From: Alphaproteobacteria bacterium | GTDB lineage: Bacteria > Pseudomonadota > Alphaproteobacteria > UBA7985 > JAUIBT01 | Assembly: GCA_030428565.1 (NCBI GenBank) | Contig: JAUIDR010000009.1 | Span: 9,986-73,985 of the forward strand | Direction of reading: 5' to 3' | DNA length: 64,000 nucleotides | In this document: one piece after another, positions 501 through 36,641 of the stretch | Position numbering within the stretch: position 1 is the first letter of the stretch | How the letters are laid out: each line of letters opens with the position of its first letter | Position numbers and translations under genes: made by a program | The notes under the pieces: model-generated | The model's input: the letters and a program-made list of their open reading frames with translations, nothing else | The model's database searches: none | Told to the model about the DNA's origin: nothing

Positions 501-608
501 GCCTAGAGCGTCGGGGCGCTGATATAGCAACAGCCCATCCGATCTAGCTGACTGATGTCTAACGCAAGTCCATGCTCACTCGTATTGCCACTCCTTCGCG
601 GTTTGCGC
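501..608 (-). repeat. 105-110-bp intergenic hairpin repeat, copy A (inverted orientation)
   Basis: About 90% identical to the segments at 3892-3999, 21488-21594, 24609-24713 and 36534-36641 (reverse complement). It contains GCGCAAG...CTTGCGC and CTAGAGCG...CGCTCTAG inverted repeats. Confidence 0.8.
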
Positions 609-635
609 CAGCTTGGTTGCTCGCGCAGGCGGCCC

Positions 636-1313
636 CTATACCCCCGGTCGTGCGAGTTCGGAAGACAGTTCGGCCCAGTCCCACACGATGCGCGCGGCCC
701 CGGCGGCGCGCAGCTTGGCTGCTTGTTCGTCAGGGCGCGGATGCGCGCCCACAAAGCCCCAAGCCTCGACACCGGCGGCCACCGCCCCGGACAGTCCTGT
801 AACGCTGTCTTCCAGCACCAGCGCGCGTTCGGCGGGCACAGCAAAGTGGGCCAAGCAATGTAAGTGCAAATCGGGTGCGGGCTTGGGACGCGGCCGATCG
901 GTCCCGGAAAAACGGTGCTCTAGGGAAAAATGCGGCTCTAGCCCAGTCAGGGCCAGTGAGCTGTGGATGTGCTCAAGACTGCCGTTCGAGGCTACGCAGC
1001 GCTGCCGCCCGCGTTCGGCCAATTGCGATAAAACCGCCTCAACCCCAGGCACCGCGGCCAATTCGGCTTCCATAACCGCGCGCCACGTCGGTTTGAGCCG
1101 CCCAATATAGGCATCAACGAAGTCTTGGCCGCACTCCTCACGCAAGATGTTGAGCTGCACCGGCGTCGCCACGCCCATAAAGCGCTGCTCGACCTCCAAT
1201 TCGCTGATGCGATAGCCCAGATCGGTGAGGACTTGCGTGACCAGACGCACCGCTAGGCGCTCTGAATCGGTCAGAACGCCATCCATGTCGAAGATAATGA
1301 GGTCAGCGGGCAC
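636..1313 (-). CDS. HAD-superfamily hydrolase (phosphatase / beta-phosphoglucomutase-like)
   Basis: The N-terminal motif LIIFDMDGVLTDSE is HAD motif I. It is 225 aa. Confidence 0.8.
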   Translation of the reverse strand: MPADLIIFDMDGVLTDSERLAVRLVTQVLTDLGYRISELEVEQRFMGVATPVQLNILREECGQDFVDAYIGRLKPTWRAVMEAELAAVPGVEAVLSQLAERGRQRCVASNGSLEHIHSSLALTGLEPHFSLEHRFSGTDRPRPKPAPDLHLHCLAHFAVPAERALVLEDSVTGLSGAVAAGVEAWGFVGAHPRPDEQAAKLRAAGAARIVWDWAELSSELARPGV

Positions 1314-2019
1314 GCTGGCAAGCCTCGATCAAGTCAGCCAAGGCCTGGCGCTCGCGCGGCACCTCAGACCAAGCTTCAAAGCAGTGGCCAACACCCAGTT
1401 CCAGCAAGGCTGCGGCCTGAGCTGCCGGGCGAGGATGCACCCCAACATAGCCGAAGACCGGCACGCCCGCCGCGACACCGCCGCCAGCGCCGGTCAAGGA
1501 ATCCTCGAACACCAGCGCGCGCTCCCGGGCCACGCCATAGGACGCCAGACAAGCGCGGTGCAGGTCGGGCGCTGGCTTGGGCGCGGCAACCTCCATACCT
1601 GAGAAGCGGTCCTGCGGCGCAAAAAAACGCGCCAAGCCTGAGATGGCCAGGGCCGAATCAATCTCCTGACGCGCCGAATTTGAAGCGAGGCAGGTTTGCA
1701 ACCCCAGCCCTTGGATCGCGTCCAGAAAGTCCGCCACGCCCGGGGTCGGCGTCAGAGCCTCGTCAAACAGCGCTACCCAGCGCTCGGCAGACGCTCGGGC
1801 AAAATCCGACCCTAGATCGACCTGCAAATCGCGGGCCAAGTTGTCGGCGATATCCTCGAAAGTCTGACCACCATAACGCAGTTCCAGCTCTTTATGACCC
1901 ATCTGAATGCCGCGCTGGGCCAAGCAATCGCAGACCGCGATCGCGCTCAGGCGTTCGGAATCATGAAGAACGCCATCCATATCGAAAATTAGTAAGTCCA
2001 GCATAGTCATTCGCGGCAT
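1303..2019 (-). CDS. HAD-superfamily hydrolase, tandem paralog
   Basis: The motif LLIFDMDGVLHDSE matches HAD motif I. It overlaps the downstream HAD gene by 11 bp and shares the same architecture. Confidence 0.8.
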   Translation of the reverse strand: MPRMTMLDLLIFDMDGVLHDSERLSAIAVCDCLAQRGIQMGHKELELRYGGQTFEDIADNLARDLQVDLGSDFARASAERWVALFDEALTPTPGVADFLDAIQGLGLQTCLASNSARQEIDSALAISGLARFFAPQDRFSGMEVAAPKPAPDLHRACLASYGVARERALVFEDSLTGAGGGVAAGVPVFGYVGVHPRPAAQAAALLELGVGHCFEAWSEVPRERQALADLIEACQRAR

Positions 2020-2137
2020 CCAGGATGAAGAAAAGGTCTTGCCAAAGCGCCATTCTTTGGCAGGCCTCGCCCTTGTGACGACCTATCTTCGTACAGCGCC
2101 AAACGCCTGCAAGCCCGCTCCCGGGCCGCATCGCCTC

Positions 2138-3182
2138 TCACGCACGTTGGCGGCGATAGCCTGCCAGAATCTTGGGCACGATGGTCTCAATGGCCTGAGC
2201 CTGAATACCCAGTTCCGCCAGCCCCGGCAAGTCACCGCTCACGACATTATCCTTGCCCAAAAGCTTGAGTTGATCGGGCGTCAGCGGTGGATCGGGCAAG
2301 AGCTGCAACACGCGGGCCTGCAGACGCGCCACGGGCATAGGCAGGGGCATCAGAATTCGCCGAGAGCCCAAGGTGTCGAGCAACAACTCAAGCAACGCCT
2401 TGAAGCTGTAGGTCTTGGGGCCACCAAGCTCAAACAAACGGCCCTCGACAGCAGGATTGGGGCTGTTGGGGCGCTGTAATCCCGCCATGATGGCCGCCAC
2501 CAAGTCGTGAACCACCAGCGGTTGGAACCGGGTTTTGCCCCCCGCGACCAACGGCAAAAAGGGCGAAATCTGCGCCATGCGCGCAAAGCGATTGAAAAAG
2601 CCGTCCTCCATGCCGATCACCAAGCTGGGGCGCAATACGGTCGCCTGCGGGAAGGCGAGCTGTACCGCCGCTTCACCCTCGGCCTTGGTGCGCGCGTATT
2701 TGGCCATCGCGTTGGGATCCGCCCCAATGGCTGAGACATGGACAAGACGCTTGAGACCGGCGGATTTGGCGCCCATCGCAATCCGCGCCGCGCCCTGAGC
2801 GTGGACTGCAGTAAAGCCTTGCTGGCCGCGTTCAAAGAGCAGACCGACCAGATTGACCGCCGCCGTGGCGCCCTTCAGCGCCGCACGCACCGCCATATCA
2901 TCTTGAAGGGGCGCATAGGTCGGCTCAATTTGCCCCGGCTGACCGAGGCTCTTGAGCCAGGCCGCCCGCGCCGGACGCCGGCTGGCTACGCGCACCCGCC
3001 ACCCTTCGCGCGCCAGGGCTGCCACCAGATAGCGGCCGATGAAGCCGCTTCCTCCGAACACCACCGCCACAGGTGATTGGCTTTGATCCGGCGATGGCTT
3101 GGGCTCGGCGTGAGGCTCAGCGTGGGACTCGATGTCCTTTTGCGGCGGTTCGACTGAAGTGTTGCGGTGGTTCTGAGACATG
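2138..3182 (-). CDS. NAD(P)-binding SDR, complex I NDUFA9-like / NAD-dependent epimerase family
   Basis: Contains the Rossmann motif VVFGGSGFIGRYLV. The ORF-track start at 3436 is probably an upstream extension. The ATG at 3182 (MSQNHRN...) is the first Met before the conserved domain. Confidence 0.7.
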
Positions 3183-3521
3183 AGGCAGCCTCCGGCTGGA
3201 TTTAGTATTGCGGCTGGTACACAAATCTGCGCGTTTTGGTGGAACATTGACAAGCCCAAAGCGGTATTCGGGCGACCCAGCTTGATTGTCATCGGCAAAC
3301 AGCAGATGTCGTTCCCAACGGCTCCACGGCAAGGGCCAGGCCCCCGAACCACCGCAATTTTAGCTTCGGCGAACGATTTTATTGGCCCGTTGATCGCATA
3401 AATGCAGGGGCGGCGGCGCGCCGACCTGGGCGCCATCGAGGTGGAGACAGCCGCGCCGCAAATGCCAGGTCCATGCCCCGCCCAACTACGCGAAAAAATC
3501 TCTTAAATCCCGCAACTTCGT

Positions 3522-3556
3522 GTTGACAAGCCGCGCGGAAGCTCACATAAGGCGGG
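3522..3556 (+). promoter_or_regulatory. candidate sigma70-like promoter for tRNA-Leu (TTGACA -35, weak -10)
   Basis: TTGACA lies at 3522-3527. A 17-nt spacer is followed by CATAAG, about 20 nt upstream of the tRNA 5' end. Confidence 0.3.
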
Positions 3557-3573
3557 TCTCGTTTAGAGCGAGT

Positions 3574-3658
3574 GCCCTGGTGGCGGAATTGGTAGACGCG
3601 CACGTTTCAGGTACGTGTGACTTCGGTCGTGGAAGTTCGAGTCTTCTCCAGGGCACCA
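3574..3658 (+). tRNA. tRNA-Leu (anticodon CAG), class II with long variable arm, CCA encoded
   Basis: Manual fold: acceptor stem GCCCTGG/CCAGGGC, anticodon stem CACGT/ACGTG with loop TTCAGGT, a long variable arm, a TTCGAGT T-loop and a 3' ACCA. Confidence 0.88.
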
Positions 3659-3891
3659 AAGCGAGATTTCCCGCTTATTAGCGTTTGATGTTACGCCATA
3701 AAAATCATGGTGCGAGCGGGCGAATGATAGGTGCGGGCGAACCGCCTCGCTAGCCAACTTCCCAGTATATCCGAATCTCAGAGCAAGCAGCCCGCCGGGC
3801 GCATAAGAGCCGCTTAGCCGAGCCAAAGCTCGCCAACGCGCGTGCCCGCCTTGGGCGCGGCGCCAAGATGCGGCAAAAAAAGCCGGCGCTA

Positions 3892-3999
3892 GCGCAAGCC
3901 CCGAACGAGTGGCAACACGAGTGAGCATGGACTTGCGCTATAAATCAGTCATTTAGAGCGGATGGGCTGTCGATACACCAGCGCCCGACGCTCTAGAGG
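3892..3999 (+). repeat. 105-110-bp intergenic hairpin repeat, copy B
   Basis: Begins GCGCTAGCGCAAGCC and ends CGCTCTAGAGG. Its 3' end abuts and overlaps the stop codon of the Gfo/Idh/MocA gene on the minus strand. Confidence 0.8.
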
Positions 4000-4985
4000 C
4001 TGATCGCGCGGCCTTCACGGCGTGAGCGTTCACATGCCAATGCCACCTCCAGAGCCAGCTTACCGTCGTGCTGAGTTGAGGAAGGCTGACGGCCTTCACT
4101 AACCGCCTGATAAAACTCGTCGAGGGCAAAATAGAACGAAGCGTCATAGCGCTCTAAAAAGAAGTGCTTGAGCGGCTGCTTGGCCTGGGTTGCGGTGGCA
4201 TCCCAGCGGATCAAATTGTTGTCGCGATGATTGCTGGTCTGCAGCATGCCGTCGCGGCCAAAAGCTTCCAAGCGCTGATCAAAGCCATAGGCGCAGCTGC
4301 GGCTGTTGTTGATATGGGCCAGGCAACCAGACGGCATTTTCAACGTCGTCATAGTGGCATCGACATCACCGTTTTCACCGATCGCGGGATCGAACAAACA
4401 GCTGCCAGCGGCAAAGACCTCCACCGGTCGTTCGCCGGTAATCCAGCAAATCAAATCAATGTCGTGGATGCTGGCGTCGACAAAATAACCGCCTGAGCGT
4501 TTGACGTATTCAATCGGTGGCGGGGCGGGCTCGCGGCTCCAGCTCATCAGGAAGGTCAGCGCGCCGATCTCGTTATTGCGCACAGCGGCCTGCAGTTGTG
4601 CAACATCGGGGTCAAAGCGGCGGTTAAAGCCCAGCATAAAGGGCACGGGGTGTTCTTCGAGCGTGGTCAGGCAGGCCTGGGTGCGCTCCAGCGACTGGTC
4701 CAAGGGCTTTTCGCAATAGATGGGCTTGCCCGCTTTGGCGCAGGCCTGGATGTATTCCAGATGGGTCGTCGTCGGCGTGGCGATGACAACCGCATCGACG
4801 CGCGGATCGGCCAAGACCACCTCCAAATCGCTGGAGGCCTGGCCGCCGTATTGGCTGGCCGCGCGCTGTGCCGATTCCAGGTTGGGATTGAAGATCGTGA
4901 CCAGGTCCAGCATGGGGTGGGCGTTGATTTTGGGGCCGTAAACGTGGGCCATCCGCCCACTTCCAAGAAGCGCTATGCCGAGCAT
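3993..4985 (-). CDS. Gfo/Idh/MocA-family NAD(P)-dependent oxidoreductase
   Basis: The N-terminal Rossmann sequence MLGIALLGSGRMA and the EKP motif (CEKPL) are typical of the family. It is 330 aa. Confidence 0.8.
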   Translation of the reverse strand: MLGIALLGSGRMAHVYGPKINAHPMLDLVTIFNPNLESAQRAASQYGGQASSDLEVVLADPRVDAVVIATPTTTHLEYIQACAKAGKPIYCEKPLDQSLERTQACLTTLEEHPVPFMLGFNRRFDPDVAQLQAAVRNNEIGALTFLMSWSREPAPPPIEYVKRSGGYFVDASIHDIDLICWITGERPVEVFAAGSCLFDPAIGENGDVDATMTTLKMPSGCLAHINNSRSCAYGFDQRLEAFGRDGMLQTSNHRDNNLIRWDATATQAKQPLKHFFLERYDASFYFALDEFYQAVSEGRQPSSTQHDGKLALEVALACERSRREGRAISL

Positions 4986-5045
4986 GGGTCTGACCTTTCG
5001 ATAGGGTGTTCAAGATTCACAACTGCCACGGTGCCGCCCATCCGC

Positions 5046-6647
5046 CTAACCTTTGGCATCTTCCAAGACGATCGCCGCGCCCTTTTCACCGATCATAATG
5101 GCCGAGGCGTTGGTGTTGCCCGTTACGATCCGGGGCATGATGGAGGCATCGATGACCCGCAAGCCTTGCAAGCCGTGGACCCGCAGACGCTCATCAACAA
5201 CAGCTTCGCCGTCGCTGGCAGGGCCCATTTTACAGCTGCCAACCGGGTGCAGGAGCGAAAGGCCATTGCTGCGGCAGTAATTCAACAGCTCTTCGTCGCT
5301 TTGAACGCCATCGCCTGGCGAGATCTCGTAGTCCACGCAAGCGGCCATGGGCGCCGTCTGGGCGATCTTGCGACCAAACTTGAGTCCCGCCATCGCGGCC
5401 CGCTGGTCGCTTTCATCGGCCAAAAAGTTGAACTGAATCGCGGGCTGATCACTGGGGCGCGGGCCGGTGACGTGGACCGAGCCGCGCGAGTTGGGGCGCA
5501 TATGCTCGGCCAAGATGGTAAAGCCGGAGAAGGGATGGGGCTTCAGGTTTTCATCCGTACACCAAGCCATGAAGGTCACCATCATGTCGGGACGATCGAC
5601 CTCGGGCGAACTGCAAATGAAGGTGTTGGAATAATTGCCATTGTCCGCAAAGGGACCGGTGCGGAATAATAAGAAGCGCAGCAGTTGCAGCCCGCCGCGC
5701 AGCGGGTTGTTGTAGAGATCGTTGACCGTGGTCGGCTTGGTAGAGCGGTATTCTGCGCCGATGCCAAAGTGATCCTGAAGGTTTTCGCCAACACCAGGCA
5801 GATCGTGGAAGGGATTAACGCCGCGTTCTTTCAGCAGCTCGGGCTTGCCAATCCCCGAAATTTCCAGCAACTGCGGCGAATTAAAGGCCCCCGCACAGAC
5901 GATTACCTCGCGTCGCGCTTTGGCCATATGGGGCCCGCTGGCGTCGCTCCAGGCGATCCCGGTTGCGCGCTTATCGGTAAACAAGATCCGCTCGACCATG
6001 GCGCGCAGCTTGATATCAATATTGGCCTTGGCGGGACCGCGCAAATAACCCGCAGCGGTGCTCCAGCGCCAGCCCTTGCGCGTGGTGGTCTGGACATAGC
6101 CGGTGCCGAGCTGCCGAGCGCCGTTGAAATCGTCATTGCGGGGAACGCCCAGGGCTTCTGAGGCCTCATGAAAGGCTTCACCCAGCGCGTGGGTAGTGCG
6201 CAGGTCCGAGACCGATACGGGCCCCCCCGTGCCGTGAAACGCATCCGCGCCGCGTTCTTGATCCTCGCAGGACTTGAAGTAGGGCAGCACGTCATCCCAG
6301 CCCCACCCGCTGCAGCCCGCTTGTTTCCAGCCGTCGAAGTCTTCTGGCTGGCCGCGCATATAGATCATGCCGTTGATCGCGCCCGTACCGCCCAGAACCT
6401 TGCCCCGCGGTTGAAACAGGCGGCGCTGGTTCAGATGCGGCTCGGGCTGGCTGGTGTAGCACCAGTTGACCGCGGGGTTGTCGTAGAGCTTTGAATAACC
6501 CAGCGGAATATGAATCCAAGGGCTGCGATCCTTGCCACCCGCTTCAAGCAATAAAACAGTATGATTGGCTTCCGCGAGCCGACCCGCGACTGCACAGCCA
6601 GCAGACCCCGCGCCAACTACAATGAAATCGTACTCTTCTACTGCCAT
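5046..6647 (-). CDS. GMC-family FAD oxidoreductase (choline dehydrogenase-like)
   Basis: Contains YDFIVVGAGSAGCAVAGRLAE (GMC N-terminal FAD motif) and C-terminal GMC motifs. The start was chosen at MAVEEYDF (ATG 6647), not the upstream extension to 6755. Confidence 0.85.
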   Translation of the reverse strand: MAVEEYDFIVVGAGSAGCAVAGRLAEANHTVLLLEAGGKDRSPWIHIPLGYSKLYDNPAVNWCYTSQPEPHLNQRRLFQPRGKVLGGTGAINGMIYMRGQPEDFDGWKQAGCSGWGWDDVLPYFKSCEDQERGADAFHGTGGPVSVSDLRTTHALGEAFHEASEALGVPRNDDFNGARQLGTGYVQTTTRKGWRWSTAAGYLRGPAKANIDIKLRAMVERILFTDKRATGIAWSDASGPHMAKARREVIVCAGAFNSPQLLEISGIGKPELLKERGVNPFHDLPGVGENLQDHFGIGAEYRSTKPTTVNDLYNNPLRGGLQLLRFLLFRTGPFADNGNYSNTFICSSPEVDRPDMMVTFMAWCTDENLKPHPFSGFTILAEHMRPNSRGSVHVTGPRPSDQPAIQFNFLADESDQRAAMAGLKFGRKIAQTAPMAACVDYEISPGDGVQSDEELLNYCRSNGLSLLHPVGSCKMGPASDGEAVVDERLRVHGLQGLRVIDASIMPRIVTGNTNASAIMIGEKGAAIVLEDAKG

Positions 6648-6715
6648 AATGCTTATCCCGAGGTCTGTCTTTGGGGTGAAGTCTGACAGCCTGCACGGCC
6701 AGAAAAAGATTGGAA

Positions 6716-6726: not shown

Positions 6727-6791
6727 GGACAAATTGCCTTTACGCAGCTCGTCATAAGCTGTTCAAATCCGAGTAACCCCTAAGATTCGCG

Positions 6792-8504
6792 TTGTGGACC
6801 ATGACCCGAGAAGAGCTGTTAAGAATTCTGAATTTCGTAGACCAAATGCGATCTTTGTCTGAAGAACGCACCGATTTGGCCTCGGTCGATGCGCGTTGGA
6901 ACATCGTTAGCTACGCCATGCACCGCCATCTGGAAGGCAAGCGCTTGACGATCACATCCGTGGCCATGGCGGCGGGAGTGCCCTATGGCACCGCTATGCG
7001 TCGCGTCAATGAATTGATCGACGAAGGCTTTTTGCTACGCCGGCCAAGATCGAAGACCGGTAAGTCCTTTTCCTTGCACCCGACGCGCAAAATGATCAAA
7101 GAGGTCGAGTCTTTTGCCATGCAATTCAAAGCCATGGTGGGCAAGACTTTTGGATTTAACACCGGTGACAAAGAAATAGAGGACTTCTATTTCGGCGGTT
7201 ACTACATGGCCTCACGCATCTTGTCGTATCCAAACGCGATGCGCAACGGACCAGGTTATGACAAGACCATACGCCTGCTGGGACCGGTTGATCCGACCTT
7301 CAAGACCCTCAGCGACCACACCGCGACCTTGAGCGAGTTGTGCGGCACGAATATCACCGCCACCAATCTGCCGCTTCGCGAGTTGCATCAAGAAATCGTC
7401 GCCAACAGCAAGCGCGAAAAATCCGAATATGATCTGATGGCCATCGATCTGCCTTGGATTGGTCAGTTGGCGGAAGAAGGGATTATCCAGCCGCTGGACG
7501 ACATCATTCGCCGGGAACGCTATAGTTCCAGCGACTTTCACTCGGCGGCCTTCGTCGGCTCTTCTTATAAAAGCGTCCAATATGGATTGCCGATCCAGCC
7601 GACGGTCGAGCTGCTGTTTTGCCGCCGCGATTTGTTCACCCAAGCCGGTCTGAAAATCCCGCAAACGGTCGAGGAAGTCTCGCTAGCCGCCCGCATTTTG
7701 CATCGCTCTGACTTCGGCCTTTCCGGGATCGTAATGAACTATGGCCGGGGCATTCCGGTCGCGCACACCTTTGTTCAGACCCTGGCCGACTTTGGCCAAC
7801 CGGTTATCAACTTGGAAGCGCGGGGCGACGAATTTGCGATCGACGATATCGAGGGCGAGCAGTTTCGCCCGATGATTGATACCGAGGCGGGCCGACAGAC
7901 CGCCGAATTCCTGTTAGAGCTGCGCGATTACGCGCACCCTGAGAGCTTGCAATGCGATTGGGATCGACGCATCGGCATTTTTGCGCGCGGCGAAGCTGCC
8001 ATGACCTATGGCTGGTCGGTGCGCGCGGCGGCCTTTGAACTAGACCCGTCATCGCCCGCTCATGGCCAGGTCGAGTTTGTGCCACACCCCCACGGCCCGG
8101 GAGCGGCCACGGTCTCACCCATGGGCGGCTTTTCTTTGGCCATGCCCGCTGGATTGGCAGAAGAGCGTAGCCGCGCGGCCTGGAAGGTCATGGAGTATTT
8201 GACCCGCCCCGAGCTCATGAAGTGGTATGTCCAAAACGGAAATCTGACCAGCCCACGTTTTTCCACCAGCGCTGACCCAGAGGTATCGGCCGCCAGCTCG
8301 ATCATTGGCAGCGTTGATGCCATGCAAAGACGCGGCGAACTGCAAATCTGGCCGCGCCCGCCGATCCCCGAGATCAACGATATCTTGCAGGTTCTGGGCA
8401 ACGAAATTTACGCCTTGCTGTGCAACGACCTCAGCGTCACTCATGCCCTCGCCGCAGCACAAAACAAGGTCGATGCCATTATGCACGAGCGTGGCCACTA
8501 CTGA
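6792..8504 (+). CDS. cytoplasmic one-component regulator: N-terminal winged-HTH fused to an ABC-type solute-binding-protein (SBP family 1 / PBP type 2) domain
   Basis: There is no signal peptide. The N-terminal roughly 110 aa are helical wHTH-like (TITSVAMAAGVPYGTAMRRVNELIDEGFL). The remainder has a DLMAIDLPWIGQLAEEG-type SBP_bac_1 signature. It is 570 aa. Confidence 0.6.
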   Translation: MWTMTREELLRILNFVDQMRSLSEERTDLASVDARWNIVSYAMHRHLEGKRLTITSVAMAAGVPYGTAMRRVNELIDEGFLLRRPRSKTGKSFSLHPTRKMIKEVESFAMQFKAMVGKTFGFNTGDKEIEDFYFGGYYMASRILSYPNAMRNGPGYDKTIRLLGPVDPTFKTLSDHTATLSELCGTNITATNLPLRELHQEIVANSKREKSEYDLMAIDLPWIGQLAEEGIIQPLDDIIRRERYSSSDFHSAAFVGSSYKSVQYGLPIQPTVELLFCRRDLFTQAGLKIPQTVEEVSLAARILHRSDFGLSGIVMNYGRGIPVAHTFVQTLADFGQPVINLEARGDEFAIDDIEGEQFRPMIDTEAGRQTAEFLLELRDYAHPESLQCDWDRRIGIFARGEAAMTYGWSVRAAAFELDPSSPAHGQVEFVPHPHGPGAATVSPMGGFSLAMPAGLAEERSRAAWKVMEYLTRPELMKWYVQNGNLTSPRFSTSADPEVSAASSIIGSVDAMQRRGELQIWPRPPIPEINDILQVLGNEIYALLCNDLSVTHALAAAQNKVDAIMHERGHY

Positions 8505-11797: not shown

Positions 11798-13302
11798 TGA
11801 ATGACATCATTCTTCAGCTCAGTGGCATCACCAAGACCTTTCCCGGTGTGACCGCACTCGACCAAGTGAGCTTGGATGTGCGCGCCGGGGAAGTGCACGC
11901 GCTCGTTGGCGAAAACGGGGCCGGAAAGTCGACTTTGATGAAAGTATTGGCGGGTCTATACAAGGCCGAACAAGGCGATATTATCTATCAAGGTCGCACA
12001 ACCGATGTGGCTGGCCCGCTCGATGCGAGGCGCAAAGGGATCTTGCTGATTCACCAGGAACTATCCCTGGCACCTGAATTGTCGGTGGCCGAGAATATCT
12101 ATCTTGGCGCCTGGCCCACCAATCGTTTCGGGGTACTAAAGAAGCGCGAATTGCGCAGCAAGGCCCAAGCGGCGCTGCAAGCCCTGGGCTGCGCCTTTGG
12201 CCCCGATGTGCGCGTGGGCACATTGTCGGTCGCCATGCAGCAGATGGTCGAGATTGCCCGCGCAGAAGCCTTTAGTGCCAGCGTTGTAATCTTTGATGAG
12301 CCAACGGCTTCCCTGACAGACACCGAAAAGGAACAACTGTTCCACACCATTCGCAGCCTCAAGGCGCGCGGCGTTGGGATAATCTATATCTCCCACAAGA
12401 TGGACGAGATCTTTCAAATAACCGATCGCATCACGGTTTTACGCGACGGGCAGGTGCAAGGCACGCTGGAGACCGCACAATCGGATGTCAACCAAGTCAC
12501 CCGCATGATGATAGGGCGCACGCTCGATACCTACTTCGTCAAAGCCAAGGCGGATTTCGGTGCAGAGGTCTTGCGCGTTGAGGGTTTGTCGAAGGCCGGG
12601 TTGTTCAACGACGTCTCCTTTTCTGTGCGCGAAGGCGAGGTGCTAGGGCTATATGGATTGGTGGGCGCCGGACGCTCGGAAGCTGTCGAGACCGTGTTTG
12701 GTGTTCGGCGCGCCGACAGCGGTCAGCTCGTCTGGAAAGGCGGGGTCATCGCGCCGCCGACGCCGCGCCAGGCCATCGATATGGGCATGGCATTGGTGCC
12801 CGAGAGCCGAAAGGAACAAGGTTTGGTATTGATGATGGGCGGGCGCGAAAATACCTCCCTGCCCCACTTGTCTTTGTTTTCGGCTTTGTCGGTCATGAAC
12901 CGAGCCAAAGAGCTGGCGACGTTTGAAAAATACCGATCTGCCCTTTCGATCAAGACTACAGGCCCGGATCAGGAAGTCTCTCAACTCTCGGGCGGCAATC
13001 AACAGAAGTTCGTTCTGGCTAAATGGCTCTGCGCTGGACCCAAGCTGATCATTCTTGATGAGCCAACACGCGGCATCGATGTCGGCTCAAAATCCGCAAT
13101 TCACGAGCTGATCGCGGAACTGGCAGAACAAGGTCTTGCCGTCATTGTTATCTCGTCTGAAATGCCCGAGGTCTTGGGCGTCAGCCACCGCGTCCTTGCC
13201 ATGTCAGAAGGCGAAATTGTGGGCTCTTTCGAGGGCCAGGAGATGAACGAGGAAAACCTCATCGATGCGGTATCCTACCACCGCCAAAGCGCTGTTGGGT
13301 GA
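11794..13302 (+). CDS. sugar ABC transporter ATP-binding protein (RbsA-like, duplicated ATPase domains)
   Basis: It has two NBDs with Walker A GENGAGKST, an LSGGQQQ signature and a second LSGGNQQK signature. It is 502 aa. Confidence 0.88.
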   Translation: MMNDIILQLSGITKTFPGVTALDQVSLDVRAGEVHALVGENGAGKSTLMKVLAGLYKAEQGDIIYQGRTTDVAGPLDARRKGILLIHQELSLAPELSVAENIYLGAWPTNRFGVLKKRELRSKAQAALQALGCAFGPDVRVGTLSVAMQQMVEIARAEAFSASVVIFDEPTASLTDTEKEQLFHTIRSLKARGVGIIYISHKMDEIFQITDRITVLRDGQVQGTLETAQSDVNQVTRMMIGRTLDTYFVKAKADFGAEVLRVEGLSKAGLFNDVSFSVREGEVLGLYGLVGAGRSEAVETVFGVRRADSGQLVWKGGVIAPPTPRQAIDMGMALVPESRKEQGLVLMMGGRENTSLPHLSLFSALSVMNRAKELATFEKYRSALSIKTTGPDQEVSQLSGGNQQKFVLAKWLCAGPKLIILDEPTRGIDVGSKSAIHELIAELAEQGLAVIVISSEMPEVLGVSHRVLAMSEGEIVGSFEGQEMNEENLIDAVSYHRQSAVG

Positions 13303-19227: not shown

Positions 19228-21491
19228 GCATGATGTTGGACCAAGAAACCCTTATCCAAGCCGCGCGCGCTGAACGCTCGCAGATTGCCTTCGAGCTGGT
19301 GTCGGATTACAAGCCCGCCGGCGACCAACCCACCGCCATCGACGAGCTGGTGAGCGGCCTGCGCGAAGGCGAACGCGATCAAGTGCTGTTGGGGGTTACG
19401 GGCTCCGGCAAGACCTTCACCATGGCCCATGTGGTGCAGACCCTCAATCGGCCGACCATCGTGCTCGCGCCCAACAAGACCTTGGCCGCCCAGCTCTATG
19501 GTGAAATGAAGTCCTTCTTCCCAAATAACGCGGTCGAATACTTCGTCTCCTATTACGACTACTACCAGCCTGAAGCTTATGTGCCGCGCTCGGATACCTA
19601 TGTTGAAAAGGAATCCTCAATCAACGAGCAGATCGACCGCATGCGCCACGCGGCCACCCGGGCCCTGTTCGAGCGCGAAGACGTGGTGATTGTGGCCTCG
19701 GTGTCTTGTATCTACGGCATGGGCTCGCCCGAGACCTACGTCGGCATGACCCTGCCCCTGGAAACCGGTGAGACGCTGGACCAGCGCGAGCTGCTGCGCC
19801 GCTTGGTCGAACTGCAATACAAGCGCAATGACGTTGCCTTCGGGCGCGGCACCTTTCGCGTGCGCGGCGATACCGTCGAAATCTACCCCTCGCACGCCGA
19901 GGACGCGGCCTGGCGCATCTCTATGTTCGGCGACGAGATCGAAGCCATCTATGAATTCGATCCGCTGACCGGCGAGCGCGGCCAACCTTTGGAGAAAGTG
20001 CGCCTCTATGCCAACTCGCACTACGTGACGCCCAAGCCCACGATTTTGCAGGCCATCAAGCAAATCAAGGTGGACCTAAAGCGCCGCTTGGAGGAGCTGG
20101 AAGCAGCGGGAAAATTGCTTGAAGCACAGCGCCTGCAACAACGCACCAGCTTTGACATCGAAATGCTGGAGGCCACCGGTTCTTGCGCGGGCATTGAGAA
20201 CTATTCGCGCTATCTGACCGGTCGCGCACCCGGCGAGCCACCGCCGACGCTGTTCGAATACATCCCCGACAACGCCCTGCTGATTATCGACGAAAGCCAC
20301 GTCACGGTGCCGCAAATCGGCGCCATGTATAAGGGCGATTCCGCGCGCAAAATGACCTTGGCTGAATACGGCTTCCGCCTGCCGTCTGCGGCCGACAACC
20401 GCCCGCTGAAGTTCGAGGAATGGGAGGCCATGCGCCCCCAAACCGTCCACGTATCCGCCACCCCTGGCAACTGGGAGATGACCGCCACCGGCGGCGCCTT
20501 TACCGAGCAGGTCATTCGCCCGACAGGACTGGTTGACCCTGTGTGCGAGATCCGGCCGACAGAAACGCAGGTGGACGATCTGATCGCCGAAGCGCGCGAC
20601 ATCGCCGAAGCGGGCGGGCGCGTTTTGGTCACCACCTTGACCAAGCGCATGGCAGAGGACTTGACCGAATATCTGGGCGAAGCGGGCCTGAAGGTGCGTT
20701 ATATCCACTCGGACGTGGACACGCTGGAGCGCATTGAAATCATTCGCGATTTACGGCTGGGCGTCTATGACGTTCTGGTCGGCATCAACCTGCTGCGCGA
20801 GGGTCTGGACATCCCGGAATGCCGCTTGGTGGCGATTCTGGACGCCGACAAGGAGGGCTATCTGCGCTCCACAACCTCGCTGATTCAGACCATCGGGCGC
20901 GCCGCGCGTAACGTTGAAGGCCGCGTCATTCTCTATGCTGACCGCACCACCGACAGCATGAAGGCCGCGCTGGAGGAGACCGAGCGCCGCCGTGAAAAAC
21001 AGCTGGCCTACAACGCCGAACATGGCATTACGCCCGAGACCATCAAGAAGGAAATCGGCGACATTTTGGGCTCGGTCTATGAGCGCGATCACGTCACCGT
21101 CGGCACCGGCGATGAAGACCTGCTGCACCTGCAAGGCAAGAGCCTGCGCGATACGCTGGACGAACTGGAAAAGCGCATGCGCGATGCCGCCGCCAATCTG
21201 GAATTCGAGGAAGCCGCGCGGCTACGCGACGAGATCAAGCGCTTGGAAGCCAAGGAGCTGGAGTTGGGCTCACCCGGTGCAGCCGTGCCCGACACCTCGG
21301 GCAAGTCAGCCGGGCGCAACAAGCAGCGCCGTCAGCAAGAGCGCGGCGAAGGGCGCGGGATAGTCGGCAAAGCCAGCGAGAAAACAACTGCTAGCACAGC
21401 ATCAGGCGGGAAGAAGAAAAGCACCAAAGCCGAGGCCATCAACCCCTTGGAGAAGGTCGTCGGCCCCATCAAGCGCAAATCCCGGCGCTAG
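19224..21491 (+). CDS. uvrB: excinuclease ABC subunit B (UvrB)
   Basis: Contains PAGDQPTAI, the Walker [12 protein letters not shown], helicase motifs and a C-terminal UvrB/UvrC interaction region. The true start may be the ATG at 19230 or 19233, not the GTG at 19224. Confidence 0.93.
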
Positions 21492-23307: not shown

Positions 23308-24597
23308 ATGAGCCAGACCCTTATCCGCGGACGCCTGCTGACCTTCCTTGAAGAGCCGCACGGCCCTGAAGACACGCAAGCCTATCGCTATTTGGACGAT
23401 GGCGGGCTATTGGTCGAGGATGGCGTGATCCGGGCCGTTGACGATTACGCGCAGGTCAAGCAGACCGCCCCTAGCGCACAGGAAATCGACCACCGCCCGC
23501 ACCTGATCCTGCCGGGCTTTATCGATACGCACCTGCATTTCCCGCAAGTCCAGGTCATCGCCTCTTGGGGGGCACAGCTTCTAGATTGGCTCAACACCTA
23601 CACCTTCCCTGAAGAGACGCGCTACGGCGACATCCAGCACGCGGCGCGCATGGCGAGCGCCTTTTTTGATGCCCTGACGGCCAACGGCACCACGACGGCG
23701 GTCGCCTATTGTTCGGTGCATGCCAGCTCTGCCGAAGCCTTTTTTGCCGAGGCCGAGCGGCGCAACTTGCGTATGATTGGCGGTAAGGTCATGATGGACC
23801 GCAACGCCCCAGACGGGCTGCGCGATACCCCTCAGAGCGGCTATGACGACAGCAAGGCCTTGATAGAACGCTGGCATGGCCGAGGCCGGGGCCTCTATGC
23901 CATCTCGCCCCGCTTTGCCATCACCTCAACGCCCGAGCAGCTGGAAGCCGCTGGCGCTTTGGTGGCCGAACACCCTGACTGCTACATGCAGACCCACCTT
24001 TCCGAGAACATGGACGAGATCGCCTTTACCGCCGAACTCTTCCCCGAAGCGCGCGACTACCTGGATGTCTACGAGCGTTTTGGGCTGCTGTCGGACAAGG
24101 CCTTGCTGGGTCATGCCATCCATCTAAAACCGCGCGAGATTGACGCTCTGGTCGAGCACGACGCACGGCCTGTCTTTTGTCCAACCTCGAACCTCTTCTT
24201 GGGCAGCGGCCTGTTCGATCACCAGGGCCTGCAAGCGCGCGGTCTGACCAATGCGATCGCCACCGACGTTGGCGGCGGCACCTCTTTTTCCATGCTGCAA
24301 ACCCTGAACGAGGGCTACAAGATTTTGCAGCTGCGCAATCAACGTCTGCACCCGCTAGCGGCCTTCTATTGGATCACACGCGGCAACGCTAAAGCGCTGG
24401 GACTTGAGGCCAGCATCGGCAGTCTGGAGCCGGGCGTAGAGGCCGATTTTGTGGTGCTGGACGCCCATGCGACGCCTTCTATGGCGCTGCGCAGCGAACG
24501 CGCCGAGACCCTGAGCGAGGAGCTGTTCATCCTGCAAATCATGGGAGACGACCGCGCCGTGCATCAGACCTATGTCGCGGGCCAGCCGCAGAAATAG
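23308..24597 (+). CDS. guaD: guanine deaminase
   Basis: It is collinear with E. coli GuaD: PGFIDTHLHFPQ, GGKVMMDRNAPD, FCPTSNLFLGSGLF, MLQTLNEGYKILQL and GDDRAVHQTYVAG. Confidence 0.9.
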   Translation: MSQTLIRGRLLTFLEEPHGPEDTQAYRYLDDGGLLVEDGVIRAVDDYAQVKQTAPSAQEIDHRPHLILPGFIDTHLHFPQVQVIASWGAQLLDWLNTYTFPEETRYGDIQHAARMASAFFDALTANGTTTAVAYCSVHASSAEAFFAEAERRNLRMIGGKVMMDRNAPDGLRDTPQSGYDDSKALIERWHGRGRGLYAISPRFAITSTPEQLEAAGALVAEHPDCYMQTHLSENMDEIAFTAELFPEARDYLDVYERFGLLSDKALLGHAIHLKPREIDALVEHDARPVFCPTSNLFLGSGLFDHQGLQARGLTNAIATDVGGGTSFSMLQTLNEGYKILQLRNQRLHPLAAFYWITRGNAKALGLEASIGSLEPGVEADFVVLDAHATPSMALRSERAETLSEELFILQIMGDDRAVHQTYVAGQPQK

Positions 24598-24791: not shown

Positions 24792-26405
24792 CTAAGCCGA
24801 GGCGATGCCGCGCACCAAATCCGCGCCCTTTTCGGCAATCATGATGGTGGCAGCATTGGTATTGGCGCTGGGCAGCGAGGGCATAACCGAAGCATCGCAG
24901 ACCCGTAGACCCGCCATGCCCCGCAAGCTGAGATCGGGCGCAACGACCGCCTCATCACCCTGCCCCATGCGACAGGTGCCAACCGGGTGGTGATCGGTCT
25001 TGGCCAAGCGGCAAGCATAATCGATCAGCTCGGCCTGGCTCTTGACCTTGGGGCCCGGCAGGACTTCAGCGCGCACGAAGGGCTTCAGCGCCGGTTGGCT
25101 CAGAATTTCGCGCGCCATTTCTAGCCCGCGCAAGGACATGTCGCGGTCGTGCGGATCGGCCCAATAGTTGGGATCAATCAAGGGGGCCGCTCTGGGATCG
25201 CTCGAGCCCAATCGCACAGAACCGCGCGAGCGTGGCCGCAGATAGGCCGAATTCAGCGTCAAGCCCCAGCCGTTGATCTTCACGATGCCCTTTTCGATGC
25301 CCGAACCTTGCCCCAGATGGAACTGGATATCGGGCGCGCTCGCTTTGGGGTCGGCGGTGGCAAAGCCGCCGGTTTCAAACAAAGAGGCCGTGACCGGTCC
25401 CGTCTTGGTCAACAGGTATTGCAGACCTGCCAATGCGCTCTTGTCCCAACGATCATAGCCGTCATAGCTATAGGGTCCGCTGCACTCAAAGATGGTGCAA
25501 AGGTCCAGGTGGTCTTGCAAATTGCGGCCCACGCCGGGCAGGTCGTGTCGCACGGGGATATTGAGCGCCGATAGCTCATCGCCGGGCCCTATGCCCGATA
25601 AAAGCAGCAACCGCGGCGAGCCGATCGCGCCCGCGGCCAAAATCACCTCGCGCTCAGCAAACAAGCTCTCTTCTTCGCGGCCGACCAATTTGACGCCGGT
25701 GACGCGTGGCCCGTCAGCGCCAGGGGTCTCGACCAGCAACCGCGCCACTTCGACGCCCGTTCTTACGGTCAGATTGGCGCGTCCTCTTGCTGGCCGCAAA
25801 AAGGCCGTAGCGGTCGAGGAACGGCGGGCATCACGCTGGGTGAGCTGGTAATAGCCGACGCCTTCTTGGCTGGCGCCGTTGAAATCGGGGTTATAGGGCA
25901 GGCCCCATTCTTGCCCCGCCCGGATAAAGGCGTCACAGATCGGCAGGGCCCCGCGCGGCATGGAGACCCCCAAGGGGCCATAGCTGCTGTGGTAGTCATC
26001 TTCGAAGCGCTCGTTGCCTTCCGAGCGTTTGAAATAGGGCAGAACCGCCCGATAGGACCAAGCCTCGTCGCCCGCCTCTTGAGCCCAACGGTCGAAGTCC
26101 TGGCGGTGGCCTCGGTTATAGAGCTGAGCATTGATCGACGAGCCGCCGCCGATCACCTTGGCCTGTGTGAACCAGAGCTGGCGGTCTTGCATGTGCTGTT
26201 GCGGTACCGTGGACCAGCCCCAAGAGGCGCGGCCCTTGGTCATGCGCGCAAAACCGGCCGGCCAATGGAACAGCAGGTTGTTGTCCTTACCGCCCGCTTC
26301 CAACAGCAAGACCCGACATTGTGGGTCTTCGCTCAACCGATTGGCCAAGACACAGCCCGCCGAGCCGCCGCCTACAATGATGATATCATAGCCCGACTTT
26401 GCCAT
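24792..26405 (-). CDS. GMC-family FAD oxidoreductase (choline dehydrogenase BetA-like)
   Basis: Contains YDIIIVGGGSAGCVLANRLSE and C-terminal GMC signature regions. It is 537 aa. Confidence 0.85.
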   Translation of the reverse strand: MAKSGYDIIIVGGGSAGCVLANRLSEDPQCRVLLLEAGGKDNNLLFHWPAGFARMTKGRASWGWSTVPQQHMQDRQLWFTQAKVIGGGSSINAQLYNRGHRQDFDRWAQEAGDEAWSYRAVLPYFKRSEGNERFEDDYHSSYGPLGVSMPRGALPICDAFIRAGQEWGLPYNPDFNGASQEGVGYYQLTQRDARRSSTATAFLRPARGRANLTVRTGVEVARLLVETPGADGPRVTGVKLVGREEESLFAEREVILAAGAIGSPRLLLLSGIGPGDELSALNIPVRHDLPGVGRNLQDHLDLCTIFECSGPYSYDGYDRWDKSALAGLQYLLTKTGPVTASLFETGGFATADPKASAPDIQFHLGQGSGIEKGIVKINGWGLTLNSAYLRPRSRGSVRLGSSDPRAAPLIDPNYWADPHDRDMSLRGLEMAREILSQPALKPFVRAEVLPGPKVKSQAELIDYACRLAKTDHHPVGTCRMGQGDEAVVAPDLSLRGMAGLRVCDASVMPSLPSANTNAATIMIAEKGADLVRGIASA

Positions 26406-31001: not shown

Positions 31002-31781
31002 TTGGGCCACCCCTACAACAAGCAACGAGCCTCCCGCATGGACGTTTCTTCGGTTCAAAAGACCCGCCTGACCTTTGCGCTGATTTCGACGCCGATGATC
31101 TTGCTGCAACACGATATCGTCAAGAACACGGTGTTTTCCGATTGGGTTCCGCTGGCGCTAGGAGATTGGGACTGGTGGCAAACACCAATGCTGCTCGCGC
31201 CTCTTTTTGTGTTGACCATTATACACTACATACGCGCATATGCGGAACAACATCGATACCGCTTTCAAAACAAAACTGATGACGTAGAATTGGAATTTGA
31301 GTCACTAAAGGCCGATTTAATCGAGCAAATTGAAGATGGAATCAAACAATACGCTATTTTATCAAAATCAATTATCTACTCCGCGACAGAGCAATCAATT
31401 TTTCAAGAAATGAATTCAATATCAAAAATAGCTGATAGTAAAATTAAATCGATTTCAAATACATCTAAAATTTTCCAAATAAACAAAATAGGCCTATATT
31501 GCTTGATGTTTTCTGATGAAATGAATGATATTATACAAAATGCAGCTGACAGCAATGCAAGCAAAGAAGTTTTGGAATATTTACATATTTCAAAATTAAT
31601 TTCGGATACAGGTCACGCAGAAAGCAAAAACATTCTTATCAAGATAAAAAGAATATCCACAGCGAGTGCGTTTGCAAACATTCTATCTGAATTGCTGTTT
31701 CCCGCTTTCTTCTGGCTTGTCTTGCTCTGGCCGTTGATCATTCACCCAGCGTTTAAGACGATCGCTGGCTACATGTCATAA
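31002..31781 (+). CDS. hypothetical membrane protein encoded in an AT-rich island (start uncertain: 31002, 31038, 31095 or 31188)
   Basis: A continuous open frame runs through about 520 bp of roughly 35% GC DNA, where stop codons would otherwise be frequent. There are two predicted TM helices (WVPLALGDWDWWQTPMLLAPLFVLTIIHYI and LLFPAFFWLVLLWPLIIHPAF). No recognisable family was found. Confidence 0.55.
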   Translation: MGHPYNKQRASRMDVSSVQKTRLTFALISTPMILLQHDIVKNTVFSDWVPLALGDWDWWQTPMLLAPLFVLTIIHYIRAYAEQHRYRFQNKTDDVELEFESLKADLIEQIEDGIKQYAILSKSIIYSATEQSIFQEMNSISKIADSKIKSISNTSKIFQINKIGLYCLMFSDEMNDIIQNAADSNASKEVLEYLHISKLISDTGHAESKNILIKIKRISTASAFANILSELLFPAFFWLVLLWPLIIHPAFKTIAGYMS

Positions 31782-32047
31782 CAGTTCCTGTCACGACCAG
31801 CGCACCTGAAACGCCCTGGCGCGCGCTCGGCCTTACGGGCCTGGCGGCTGCGACTCATTGTTATTCAATCGAAGGCGGGATGCTTGGCGATCTCTTGTTG
31901 ATCTCGCGCAGGGGTAAAATCTGCAAGGCTTGGTGCTGTGACGGCCCTCAAATACCGCCGCACAGCCCCCCCCCAAGCAGACCTGACAAGGGCTCGGTCA
32001 AACAGCCCACCAAGAACGACAGCGAGTCTAAGGCAAACCCTCCAGGC

Positions 32048-32578: not shown

Positions 32579-32698
32579 GTCGGGAATCCTCGTTTAGGGT
32601 CAGGTGCTTATCGGAACCTGGCGAGCGCTATCACAGCGCCCAAGCATGGCTCCACCTTGACCCTAGACCATTTCGGCATACCCCCGCAACGCTAAGGC

Positions 32699-35116: not shown

Positions 35117-35375
35117 GGCAAATTCCTTCCTGCACACATGGCTTGCGGCCACCGATTGGCAAAAGACGCGCGCTGCCGCGCGGCGTTGTGACCAGAGCTC
35201 GCGAATTGTTCTTGACCTAATCCCTATAGGCCGTTTTGCATGGGACAAATGCGTCAGAATCTGCGCTGATTTTTCCGTCAAGCCGACTTGGGGCACTTTT
35301 TTGCCGTCAGGCCCGTCGCCAACGACGCGGCTTGCTGACAGGATTGCTGCCGCTTCTCTAACTTTGTGAGGCCCC

Positions 35376-36569
35376 TTGCGCCCTTCTCAATTGACCCTGG
35401 ATCTAGCCCCTTTGGCTGGCAACAAATGGGCCTTGCATGGCCAAGCCCGCCGACGGCAGCGCGCGGGCGATGAAGTGCTGATGCTGACAATTGGCGAACC
35501 CGACCAGCCGGCCGACCCGCTGCTGATCGCGGCGGCCAAGACCGCGCTGGACCAAGGCCGCACGCGCTATTCTAACGGCCAAGGCGAGGCGGGCTTGTTG
35601 GCCGCGCTGGTGGCGCGTTACCAAGGACGCAGCCCCTCGCCCCTCAGCGCTGACAATTTTATCTGTCTGCCTGGTACGCAGACCGCGCTCTATGTGGCGC
35701 TGCGCGCTATCTTGGAACCAGGGGATGAGGTGCTGGTCGGCGATCCGCTCTATGCCACCTACGAGAGCGTCATTGTGGCCTGCGGTGCGCGTCCGGTGCT
35801 AGTGCCGCTGAACAGCGAGGCGGACTTTATATTCGACGCCGCGCGCGCCGGTGCCTTCATCACCGAAAAGACCAAGGCGCTATTGCTCAACAATCCGCAC
35901 AACCCGACGGGCGCGGTGTTGCCGCGCCAAGCCTTGCGCGCACTGGGCGAATTGGCCAAGCAGCATGATCTTTGGATCGTCGCCGATGAAGTCTATGAGG
36001 CGCTGATTTTCGACCCAGAGGCCACGCCCTTTGCCTCGCCTTGGGATTGGGCCGACCTTCACGACCGCTCAATTATCGTCTCGTCTATCTCAAAGAGCCA
36101 CGCCGCGCCCGGCTTCCGCAGCGGCTGGTTGTTGGCATCGCGCGATTTCTGTCGCGTCGCCTTGCCCTTGGCAGAGGCGCTGTTGTTCGGCAATCAACCC
36201 TTTATCGCCGACGCTACTGCGCAGGTCTTGAACGCTGCCGACAAAGCGGTGAGCGAGCGTATGCGCGCTGACTACGCCCGCCGTGCGCGCCTGGTGGCCA
36301 GCCTACTGCATGGGCGCGCGGGCCTAGAAGTCTTTGCACCGCAGGCGGGCCTGTTCTTGTTGGTGGATGTGACCGCGACCGGCCTGGATGGGCAGGGCTT
36401 CGCCCGGCGCCTGCTGGACGAACAAGCGGTAGCGGTCATGCCCGGCGCGTCTTTTGGCACCCGCATTGACAATTGGCTACGGCTCAGCCTGACGGTCAGT
36501 GACGCCCAACTTATCGAGGCATCAGCGCGCATCCTAGCTCAAGCTGCGAAGGAGTGGCAACACGAGTGA
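35376..36569 (+). CDS. PLP-dependent aminotransferase, class I/II
   Basis: Contains the PLP-Lys region SISKSHAAPGFRSGW and aspartate-aminotransferase-fold motifs. The last six codons (KEWQHE*) are supplied by repeat copy E. Confidence 0.8.
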   Translation: MRPSQLTLDLAPLAGNKWALHGQARRRQRAGDEVLMLTIGEPDQPADPLLIAAAKTALDQGRTRYSNGQGEAGLLAALVARYQGRSPSPLSADNFICLPGTQTALYVALRAILEPGDEVLVGDPLYATYESVIVACGARPVLVPLNSEADFIFDAARAGAFITEKTKALLLNNPHNPTGAVLPRQALRALGELAKQHDLWIVADEVYEALIFDPEATPFASPWDWADLHDRSIIVSSISKSHAAPGFRSGWLLASRDFCRVALPLAEALLFGNQPFIADATAQVLNAADKAVSERMRADYARRARLVASLLHGRAGLEVFAPQAGLFLLVDVTATGLDGQGFARRLLDEQAVAVMPGASFGTRIDNWLRLSLTVSDAQLIEASARILAQAAKEWQHE

Positions 36570-36641
36570 GCATGGACTTGCGTTAGAAATCAGTCAGCTA
36601 GAGCGGATGGGCTGTTGCGACACCAGCGCCCGACGCTCTGG
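36534..36641 (+). repeat. 105-110-bp intergenic hairpin repeat, copy E
   Basis: Its 5' part is degenerate and overlaps the aminotransferase 3' end. The remainder is about 90% identical to copies B and C. Confidence 0.75.

Follow-up and report, generated by a model that had tools for sequence, protein, structure and literature searches.

A repeated element at gene 3' ends

The 64,000-nt stretch of contig JAUIDR010000009.1 analysed here (hereafter the window) contains hairpin-forming repeats of about 108 nt. They are genuine copies of a non-coding mobile element and make up a new family, though one of a familiar type. When a covariance model derived from 25 copies is run without filters, it detects five copies of the family in the window and no more, all of them within the first 37 kb. 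These score 106-121 bits, against 10.6 bits (E 0.69) for the next best match. A 31-nt core pattern also matches the window five times, with 0.00 matches expected from shuffled sequence. The five copies are recovered by alignment and by repeat finding as well as by the covariance model, and they occur in both orientations:

503-611, minus strand: copy A, 109 nt including the flanking Y and R bases and both TA dinucleotides; 109.2 bits
3889-3996, plus strand: copy B, the exemplar for the anatomy described below; 115.4 bits
21488-21597, plus strand: copy C; 106.3 bits
24610-24717, minus strand: copy D; 116.3 bits
36534-36641, plus strand: copy E, within the 3' end of the aminotransferase gene 35376-36569; 121.2 bits

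When the five are aligned, their similarity extends for about 108 nt and ends sharply at identical boundaries, beyond which the flanks are unrelated. Copy A is placed between the convergent genes for a thiolase (stop at 473) and a HAD hydrolase (636-1313, minus strand), 29 and 24 nt from their respective stops. Copy B is antisense relative to a Gfo/Idh/MocA gene (3993-4985, minus strand), the TAG stop of which (3993-3995) is contained in the right-terminal CTAG of the element (3993-3996). The left-terminal CTAG of copy C contains the TAG stop of uvrB (21489-21491), and the right TA of this copy has decayed to CA. Copy D lies between the convergent genes for an amidohydrolase (stop at 24597, 12 nt away) and a GMC oxidoreductase (24792-26405, minus strand). 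The original prediction that was followed up here had placed all five copies within a few bases of these positions and at gene 3' ends. It had also reported two internal inverted repeats, the uvrB stop inside copy C and the overlap of copy B with the Gfo/Idh/MocA stop, all of which are borne out. Its figure of about 90% identity was slightly high, as the mean pairwise identity of the window copies is 86.5%. It rightly traced the end of the aminotransferase to copy E, though the element supplies about ten codons plus the stop rather than six codons.

Every copy consists of two hairpins (HP1 and HP2) separated by an 11-nt linker and bounded by YTAG...CTAR. In copy B, HP1 occupies 3889-3941, the linker 3942-3952, and HP2 3953-3996. 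HP1 (about 53 nt) reads CTAG(C/A)GCAAGCC...GGACTTGCGYTAG, its inverted repeat being CTAGCGCAAG...CTTGCGYTAG. HP2 (about 44 nt) reads CTAGAGCGGA.GGGC...GCCCGACGCTCTAG, with the inverted repeat CTAGAGCGG.GGGC...GCCC.CGCTCTAG. The element proper is 102 bp long, 5'-G(A/C)GCAAGCC...GACGCTC-3', and reaches 108 nt with the flanking Y-TA and TA-R; together with the target TA its ends read 5'-TA/GAGCAAGCC...GCTC/TA-3', where the slashes mark the element boundaries. The two ends form an imperfect terminal inverted repeat of about 26 nt. In the consensus of the copies from a related metagenome-assembled genome (MAG, described below) it matches at 15 of 26 positions (GAGC, GCG, and GCAACA; shuffle p=5e-5), and in the window consensus at 14 of 26 (p=0.002). 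Stops are present in all six frames in 22 of 25 copies, indicating that the element is without coding capacity. Both in this respect and in its size, the 102-bp element conforms to a bacterial MITE (miniature inverted-repeat transposable element; about 50-800 bp).

Distribution among genomes

When 185,579 species-representative genomes were searched for the core pattern, 30 loci were returned, all of them in a single MAG, CAZHYF01, which is labelled 'uncultured Rhodospirillaceae bacterium'. Many of these loci lie at contig ends, as expected because repeats break assemblies. The MAG copies are 95.5% identical among themselves and 85.7% identical to the window copies. The two consensus sequences differ at eight positions, indicating that each genome has a subfamily of its own and that the burst in the MAG is the more recent. 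Two MAG contigs (L008 1403-1560 and L020 1-127; L-numbers denote the related loci and contigs that were fetched) share the element and 19 nt of flank, exactly 127 nt in all. This looks like a k-mer overlap from the assembly graph and not like two insertions, so one flank of the L020 copy is unreliable.

The window UvrB is a 100% match to a 753-aa NCBI protein, and the closest homologues with a name (75-78%) come from Fodinicurvata, Limibacillus, and Kiloniellales. Three congeners, represented by L038, L039, and L040, have a UvrB in the same 90% cluster, and their uvrB DNA is 84-87% identical. L040 carries one copy of the MAG subfamily (126 bits) and L038 a diverged copy precisely at the uvrB stop; L039 has no copy within 13 kb. 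The tally is therefore 5 + 30 + 2 copies in at least four genomes. The original prediction had considered that a genome-wide search might find only the copies of the window, which does not apply, as other genomes carry the family.

Exact patterns for the HP1 loop and for HP2 found no match in the JGI metagenomes. Since L040 is itself a JGI contig with a copy, that collection is incomplete for this purpose. Viral contigs (pattern scan), phages, and plasmids (both blastn, with many alphaproteobacterial replicons among the plasmids) likewise gave no match. As found, the family is confined to one group of uncultured alphaproteobacteria. Exact patterns catch near-identical subfamilies only and miss diverged relatives such as that in L038, so the family may be wider.

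Copy E interrupts an aminotransferase gene

Insertion of the element can be seen directly at copy E. The Pfam domain of the aminotransferase stops at residue 386 of 397, where copy E starts, and the present tail of the protein (LAQAAKEWQHE*, 36534-36569) is encoded wholly inside the 108-nt copy. If copy E is cut out and one CTAG retained, the gene encodes an aminotransferase of 402 aa ending ARILAFANALQAQPIEAES; cutting out all 108 nt leaves the gene frame-shifted, with a nonsense tail. The tails of homologues, for example ARILALANKLIAKQNGG (P0122, an 83% identical protein), RILALARSLNAPSDHR, and RIAAFAARQL, agree with the reconstructed tail and disagree with the present one, ARILAQAAKEWQHE. 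An orthologous empty site is found in L033, a contig of the 83% relative, in which the sequence is uninterrupted (GCGCGCATTTTGGCGCTCGCCAAT). The corresponding flanks of copy E in the window are GCGCGCATC-CTAG and CTTTCGCCAAC, and the convergent gene downstream is the same as in L033. Four Logan contigs of the window species all have the copy E insertion, and all of them break inside copy E. The former C-terminal coding segment of the aminotransferase survives, untranslated, beyond the inserted element:

36642-36688, plus strand: relic of the displaced aminotransferase C-terminus, with tail FANALQAQPIEAES and stop TAG at 36686-36688, identified by the reconstruction, the homologue tails, and the empty site in L033

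Copies C and D were also compared with L039 as empty-site tests. Both comparisons were dropped because the downstream sequence is not alignable, so neither was a clean test.

Target site and overlap with stop codons

In the 26 full copies, the left tetranucleotide is CTAG, TTAG, or a point-changed version of these, and the right tetranucleotide is CTAG, CTAA, or a point-changed version. At the outermost position the left end thus has Y (C19/T7) and the right end R (G23/A3), with near-fixed inner end bases (G in 26/26 and C in 25/26). Variation affects 10 of 52 outer positions and 1 of 52 inner positions (Fisher p=0.008). Most copies have a TA at each end, and the target reads YTAR. Variable Y and R outside a fixed G...C fit a 2-bp duplication of TA within a YTAR target, which appears to be the best-fitting account, judging from the pattern of end bases and not from a de novo event. 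A 4-bp CTAG duplication in the style of IS5 or MITEPsy1 was rejected, since it would make the two tetranucleotides of a copy equal, whereas in 11 of 25 copies they do not match, the mismatch always being at the outer base.

In 16 of the 26 full copies, the adjoining gene has the TAG of a terminal CTAG as its stop codon. The overlap involves the HP1 end in ten copies and the HP2 end in six (p=0.45 for the split). At copy C the encoded UvrB ends at the same residue as its relatives, which end VGPIKRKKR*, indicating that insertion left the protein untouched. By crude gene calls, 82 of 354 non-coding YTAR sites lie on stops (23%). The observed overlap exceeds this background (p=3e-5), and it also exceeds a conservative background of 40% (p=0.02), chosen for the case that intergenic space has been over-counted. 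The remaining copies are 12-233 nt from a gene 3' end or lie between convergent genes. Among the copies checked, none is directly upstream of a gene start.

The lineage that carries the element is itself rich in TAG stops. Crude gene calls in the window give 26 TAG, 11 TAA, and 8 TGA among 45 stops (TAG about 58%), and the independently called genes of relatives give 17 TAG, 7 TAA, and 4 TGA among 28. The window and the MAG loci together have 89 TAG, 43 TAA, and 39 TGA. This dominance was noted in the window, L031, L038, L039, L040, and L001-L030. It is unusual at about 60% GC, because bacteria generally use TAG little whatever the GC (PMC9348620). Several of the TGA stops occur in overlapping stop/start contexts (ATGA and GTGA).

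A probable TA-duplicating, non-autonomous transposon

We propose that the repeats are probably a non-autonomous DNA transposon (MITE) that duplicates TA at YTAR targets and accumulates at stop codons. A transposase, presumably supplied in trans, would insert the 102-bp element at 5'-YTAR-3' and duplicate the central TA. The resulting copy would read Y-TA-[G...C]-TA-R, by analogy with the behaviour of the IS427 group of the IS5 family (IS711) and of IS630. That the repeat is of the dispersed, MITE type had been suggested in the original prediction and is supported by its presence in multiple genomes, the use of both orientations, the target-site signature, the terminal inverted repeat, and the pair of filled and empty sites.

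The distinctive trait of the family is the stop-codon-neutral logic of its insertion. Both ends of the element start with G when read inward, and a TAG or TAA stop whose TA received the element would be rebuilt as TAG in either orientation. Because the end base G rebuilds the stop in this way, a copy can overlap a stop codon and leave the protein intact. The stops of the lineage are mostly TAG or TAA after a pyrimidine, which would offer abundant harmless landing sites, and copies would then pile up at these sites or just downstream. An insertion a few codons upstream of the stop would instead swap the tail of the protein, as at copy E. This explanation is partly shown and partly inferred. After insertion, the element probably becomes part of the transcript as a structured 3' untranslated region (UTR), selfish spread being the default reading. 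Stop codons go unmentioned in a 2024 review of MITEs and in a large-scale MITE survey of the same year, though earlier descriptions elsewhere are possible.

Several observations weigh against this proposal. A single clean pair of empty and filled sites was obtained, that of copy E and L033. TA duplication and insertion 3' of a host YTAG, with the CTAG borne by the element, are inseparable from the flanks, as both lead to the same empty site. The terminal inverted repeat is weak, being perfect in GAGC only and owing part of its match to the HP2 palindrome. Terminal inverted repeats of MITEs are usually quoted at 10-15 bp, and the repeat here is weaker. The excess at stop codons rests on crude gene calls, and it may reflect either targeting or selection against other sites, that is, survival of harmless insertions. 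Lastly, neither the window nor about 190 kb of related loci yielded a transposase or a longer element with the same ends. Pfam searches of the window open reading frames (ORFs) and of the ORFs of atypical composition in the related loci found no transposase, and there was no Y1_Tnp among the window ORFs scanned.

Three candidates for lone ends or insertion sequences (IS), at L001:3933, L019:7548, and L028:6397, are chance matches; the last falls inside a gene that was read as a CoA-transferase from its translation alone.

The most serious alternative, which we nevertheless consider unlikely, is that a single-strand HUH/Y1 enzyme inserts the element 3' of a host YTAG without duplication, either as an IS200/IS605-derived palindrome-associated element or in the manner of REP/REPIN-RAYT. 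In that case HP1 and HP2 would serve for recognition of the left and the right end, respectively, and the element itself would include the right CTAG. The presence of two different subterminal hairpins, one per end, agrees with such a mechanism, as does the dissimilarity of the ends beyond about 6 nt in both the 108-nt family and a 119-nt sister family. Location between convergent genes is typical of REPs, and the empty site predicted is the same as under TA duplication. There is also a weak hint of pairing with position 53, in that T1 occurs with A53 in 3 of 6 copies as against 4 of 25. This pairing of columns 1 and 53 stood at 3/4 against 4/22 at first and became non-significant once partial copies were added. 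An improbable further possibility is that target choice is guided by pairing of the flanking YTAG with an internal CTAR, like the guide sequences of IS200/IS605.

The structure of the ends speaks against an HUH/Y1 enzyme. Read as an inverted repeat they agree at 15 of 26 positions (p=5e-5), more than the 8 of 26, counted by eye, at which they agree as a direct repeat, and the related F2 family described below has symmetric inverted ends. Variation is limited to the outermost base and is symmetric on both sides, as expected for a host Y and R. The hairpins take in the terminal bases themselves, with no offset from the ends, the 44-53-nt units are longer than REPs, and a GTAG head is lacking. 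No solo HP2 units exist, as the four candidates were all without the 3' arm. No Y1 transposase was found in the sequence searched, an absence that is weak evidence. The IS200/IS605 TnpA put forward in the original prediction as a partner is disfavoured by the inverted-repeat ends and the end-base variation.

It is less likely still that the copies are kept for a role in RNA, whether as 3' UTR stabilisers, as processing sites like those of Correia, ERIC, and REP, as terminators, or as small RNA genes, with mobility being secondary. The consensus strand of the window copies does fold into two stable hairpins at -34 to -44 kcal/mol, and the complement folds less well. Fold z-scores are between -1.4 and -3.7 for four of the five window copies, with copy B the most stable at -44 kcal/mol (z -3.7), but copy A folds no better than shuffled sequence (z +0.5). 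Copies directly behind stops are very likely co-transcribed, and effects of MITE RNA on neighbouring mRNAs are known (PMC2229807). The sense orientation is the commoner among stop-overlapping copies (10 vs 6), but both orientations occur and the split is not significant. No covariation was detected, the fraction of paired cells being 97.0% against 96.7% in shuffles and double changes occurring in two pairs, a number reached by 132 of 500 shuffles. The signal is absent because the copies are too similar. Substitutions in the stems break pairs about as often as they keep them. No T run follows HP1 or HP2 in the copies, and terminator and promoter scans flagged nothing in copies A to D. Without a U-tract the copies are not intrinsic terminators of the SPRITE type, and the terminator role that had been suggested for them is not supported. 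Rfam returned no match to the window at the gathering threshold, the best sub-threshold match being 11.4 bits (E=2).

The idea that a single duplicated gene or a segmental duplication left these segments behind, to which the overlap of three copies with annotated coding ends might point, is refuted by the stops in all six frames, the sharp and identical boundaries between unrelated flanks, the 30+ copies beside unrelated genes in other genomes, and the fact that insertion accounts for the coding overlap.

A TA-duplicating MITE thus remains the preferred reading. An improbable extension of it is that the family is adapted to stop codons, the G end and the YTAR target together forming a 'stop-codon-safe' strategy tied to a TAG-dominant lineage. 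If so, the niche may owe its existence to the TAG/TAA-rich stops of the lineage; alternatively, the elements, together with their structured RNA just behind the stop, may affect termination or mRNA fate and so help to keep TAG common.

Sister elements and a probable mosaic make-up

Sister families with the same left-end motif, YTAG-N-GCAA(A/G)GCC, occur in the same genomes:

49401-49519, minus strand: B-type element of 119 nt in the window, with the same two-hairpin plan and 70% identical to L038 12314-12431
L025 360-409, L040 2688-2743, L027 7425-7676, L014 279-423, L011 about 7271-7288, and L019 about 6238-6276: F2 units

The B-type element of the window was overlooked in the original prediction. 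Its left end, CTAG-G-GCAAAGCC, is followed by a first hairpin, a linker, and a second hairpin, TAGAGCGCG...CGCGCTCTAG. The TAG stop of a Sel1-repeat gene (49516-51090, minus strand) falls within the terminal CTAG of the element (49516-49519). This gene is a 524-aa ORF made up mostly of 36-aa (108-nt) repeats with the signature W(F/Y)RKAAEQG...NLG.MY..G.GV, the Sel1 assignment having been read from the repeat sequences and not from Pfam. At the uvrB stop of L038 (12250-12431), the diverged copy and the B-type counterpart form a composite, in which an HP1-like half of the 108-nt type (12250-12313) is joined to a complete, reversed B-type element and the HP2 hairpin is shared. It may have arisen by nested insertion into an internal CTAG, or it may be a product of recombination.

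The F2 family consists of CTAG-bounded hairpin units of about 50-56 nt, CTAGCGCAAAGCCCAAGCTCTTGG...TTTTGCTCTAG. The 50-nt unit of L025 has a good inverted repeat (CTAGCGCAAAGCC / CTAGAGCAAAACC), and those of L027 and L014 form tandem arrays with a period of about 55-56 nt. As HP1 resembles a unit of the F2 type and HP2 a second mini-unit, the 108-nt element is best regarded as a mosaic of two palindromes that now moves as one.

Other features of the window

On the minus strand at 3872-3888, just downstream of copy B, CGCCGGC is followed by TTTTTTT. The terminator scan made no call here, but together with the gene-proximal flank the segment may once have served the Gfo/Idh/MocA gene as its intrinsic terminator, and would now be cut off from the stop by a 104-bp insertion. 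A tandem array at 58341-58824, between two convergent ORFs, comprises 9.3 copies of a 52-nt unit, AAACCCCGAGGCTTGGAAGCCAAGCCGACGGTGGCTTTGCGAGACACCAGCG, with 95% matches; each unit has the inverted repeat GGCTTGG/CCAAGCC. The array is probably non-coding, as 52 is not a multiple of 3. The HAD hydrolase gene next to copy A (636-1313) is one of two adjacent HAD-family paralogues, the other being 1303-2019 (minus strand). The two overlap by 11 nt and share the region of the N-terminal DxDGVL motif (76% over 50 nt). A 99-nt direct repeat (52629-52727 and 52815-52913; 73% identity, 186 nt apart) inside the ORF 52400-53005 (minus strand) suggests an internal domain duplication. Finally, the ORF 31002-31781 (plus strand; 259 aa) is rich in Ile, Lys, Asn, and Ser codons and has no Pfam match in an otherwise ordinary metabolic neighbourhood. 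Its codon content suggests an A+T-rich coding sequence, which may be foreign DNA.

Significance and comparison with known systems

The element accounts for odd gene ends in an uncultured lineage, in which it has replaced the tail of one protein and left a silent relic behind. It also disrupts metagenomic assemblies, with many contigs ending inside copies. The family provides a clear case in which a palindromic target and a matching end base allow cost-free landing on stop codons, and the same stop-neutral logic may explain why small repeats often sit at gene 3' ends. The TAG-dominant stop usage of the lineage may be of wider interest than the element.

The ends of elements in the IS711/IS427 group start with GAG, as do those of the present family. 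ISPsy19 may be compared in this regard (PMC3189936). IS711 uses the target YTAR and duplicates TA (PMC2266754), so that the present family resembles the IS711/IS427 group in its YTAR target with TA duplication, and also in its alphaproteobacterial host. It differs from that group in that no transposase or IS with matching ends was found in the window and related loci. Assignment to the IS427 group is suggested by the target signature alone, a signature that IS630 shares. MITEPsy1, a 100-nt element derived from the IS5 family, is of similar size and targets CTAG or YTAA (PMC3189936), but its duplication is 4 nt long and its 18-nt inverted repeat is unrelated in sequence.

RUP is 107 bp long with a TA target, and its proposed mover is IS630-Spn1 (PMC2229807). 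Like RUP and other TA-flanked MITEs (Correia/NEMIS and ERIC), the present element is about 107 bp long and non-coding, with stops in all frames. It further shares with RUP terminal inverted repeats, TA as the target and at each terminus, numerous copies scattered near genes, and folded transcripts. Unlike RUP, Correia/NEMIS, and ERIC, to which it has no sequence similarity and whose hosts belong to a different phylum, it has two independent hairpins in place of one long end-to-end stem, and a much weaker inverted repeat. A further difference is that 60% of its copies lie exactly on stops, a trait not found described for those families in the literature searched.

REP, REPIN, and BIME sequences are also palindromic units in a mosaic, found at gene 3' ends and in convergent intergenic regions, and they too give hairpin RNA at the 3' ends of mRNAs. 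The present family differs in its longer units, its lack of a GTAG head, its fixed two-unit arrangement, and the host CTAG or TA flanking the insertion on either side. No gene for a RAYT was seen.

The remaining comparison is with CIR1-4, the CcrM-associated intergenic repeats of Caulobacter, the mobility mechanism of which is unknown (PMC2229807). They too are about 105-110 bp long and alphaproteobacterial, with two arms, a linker, and TA termini, and are strictly intergenic with stops in all frames (PMC2229807). Their hallmark GANTC methylation motif, however, is absent from all 25 copies of the present family. CIR1-4 are possibly related to Bru-RS1/RS2 of Brucella, both having been compared with the present family by description only, and the Bru-RS elements are hot spots for IS711 (PMC2266754). 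If the same insertion logic holds for the two-armed CIR and Bru-RS repeats, whose mobility is unexplained, it would provide a testable mechanism for them.

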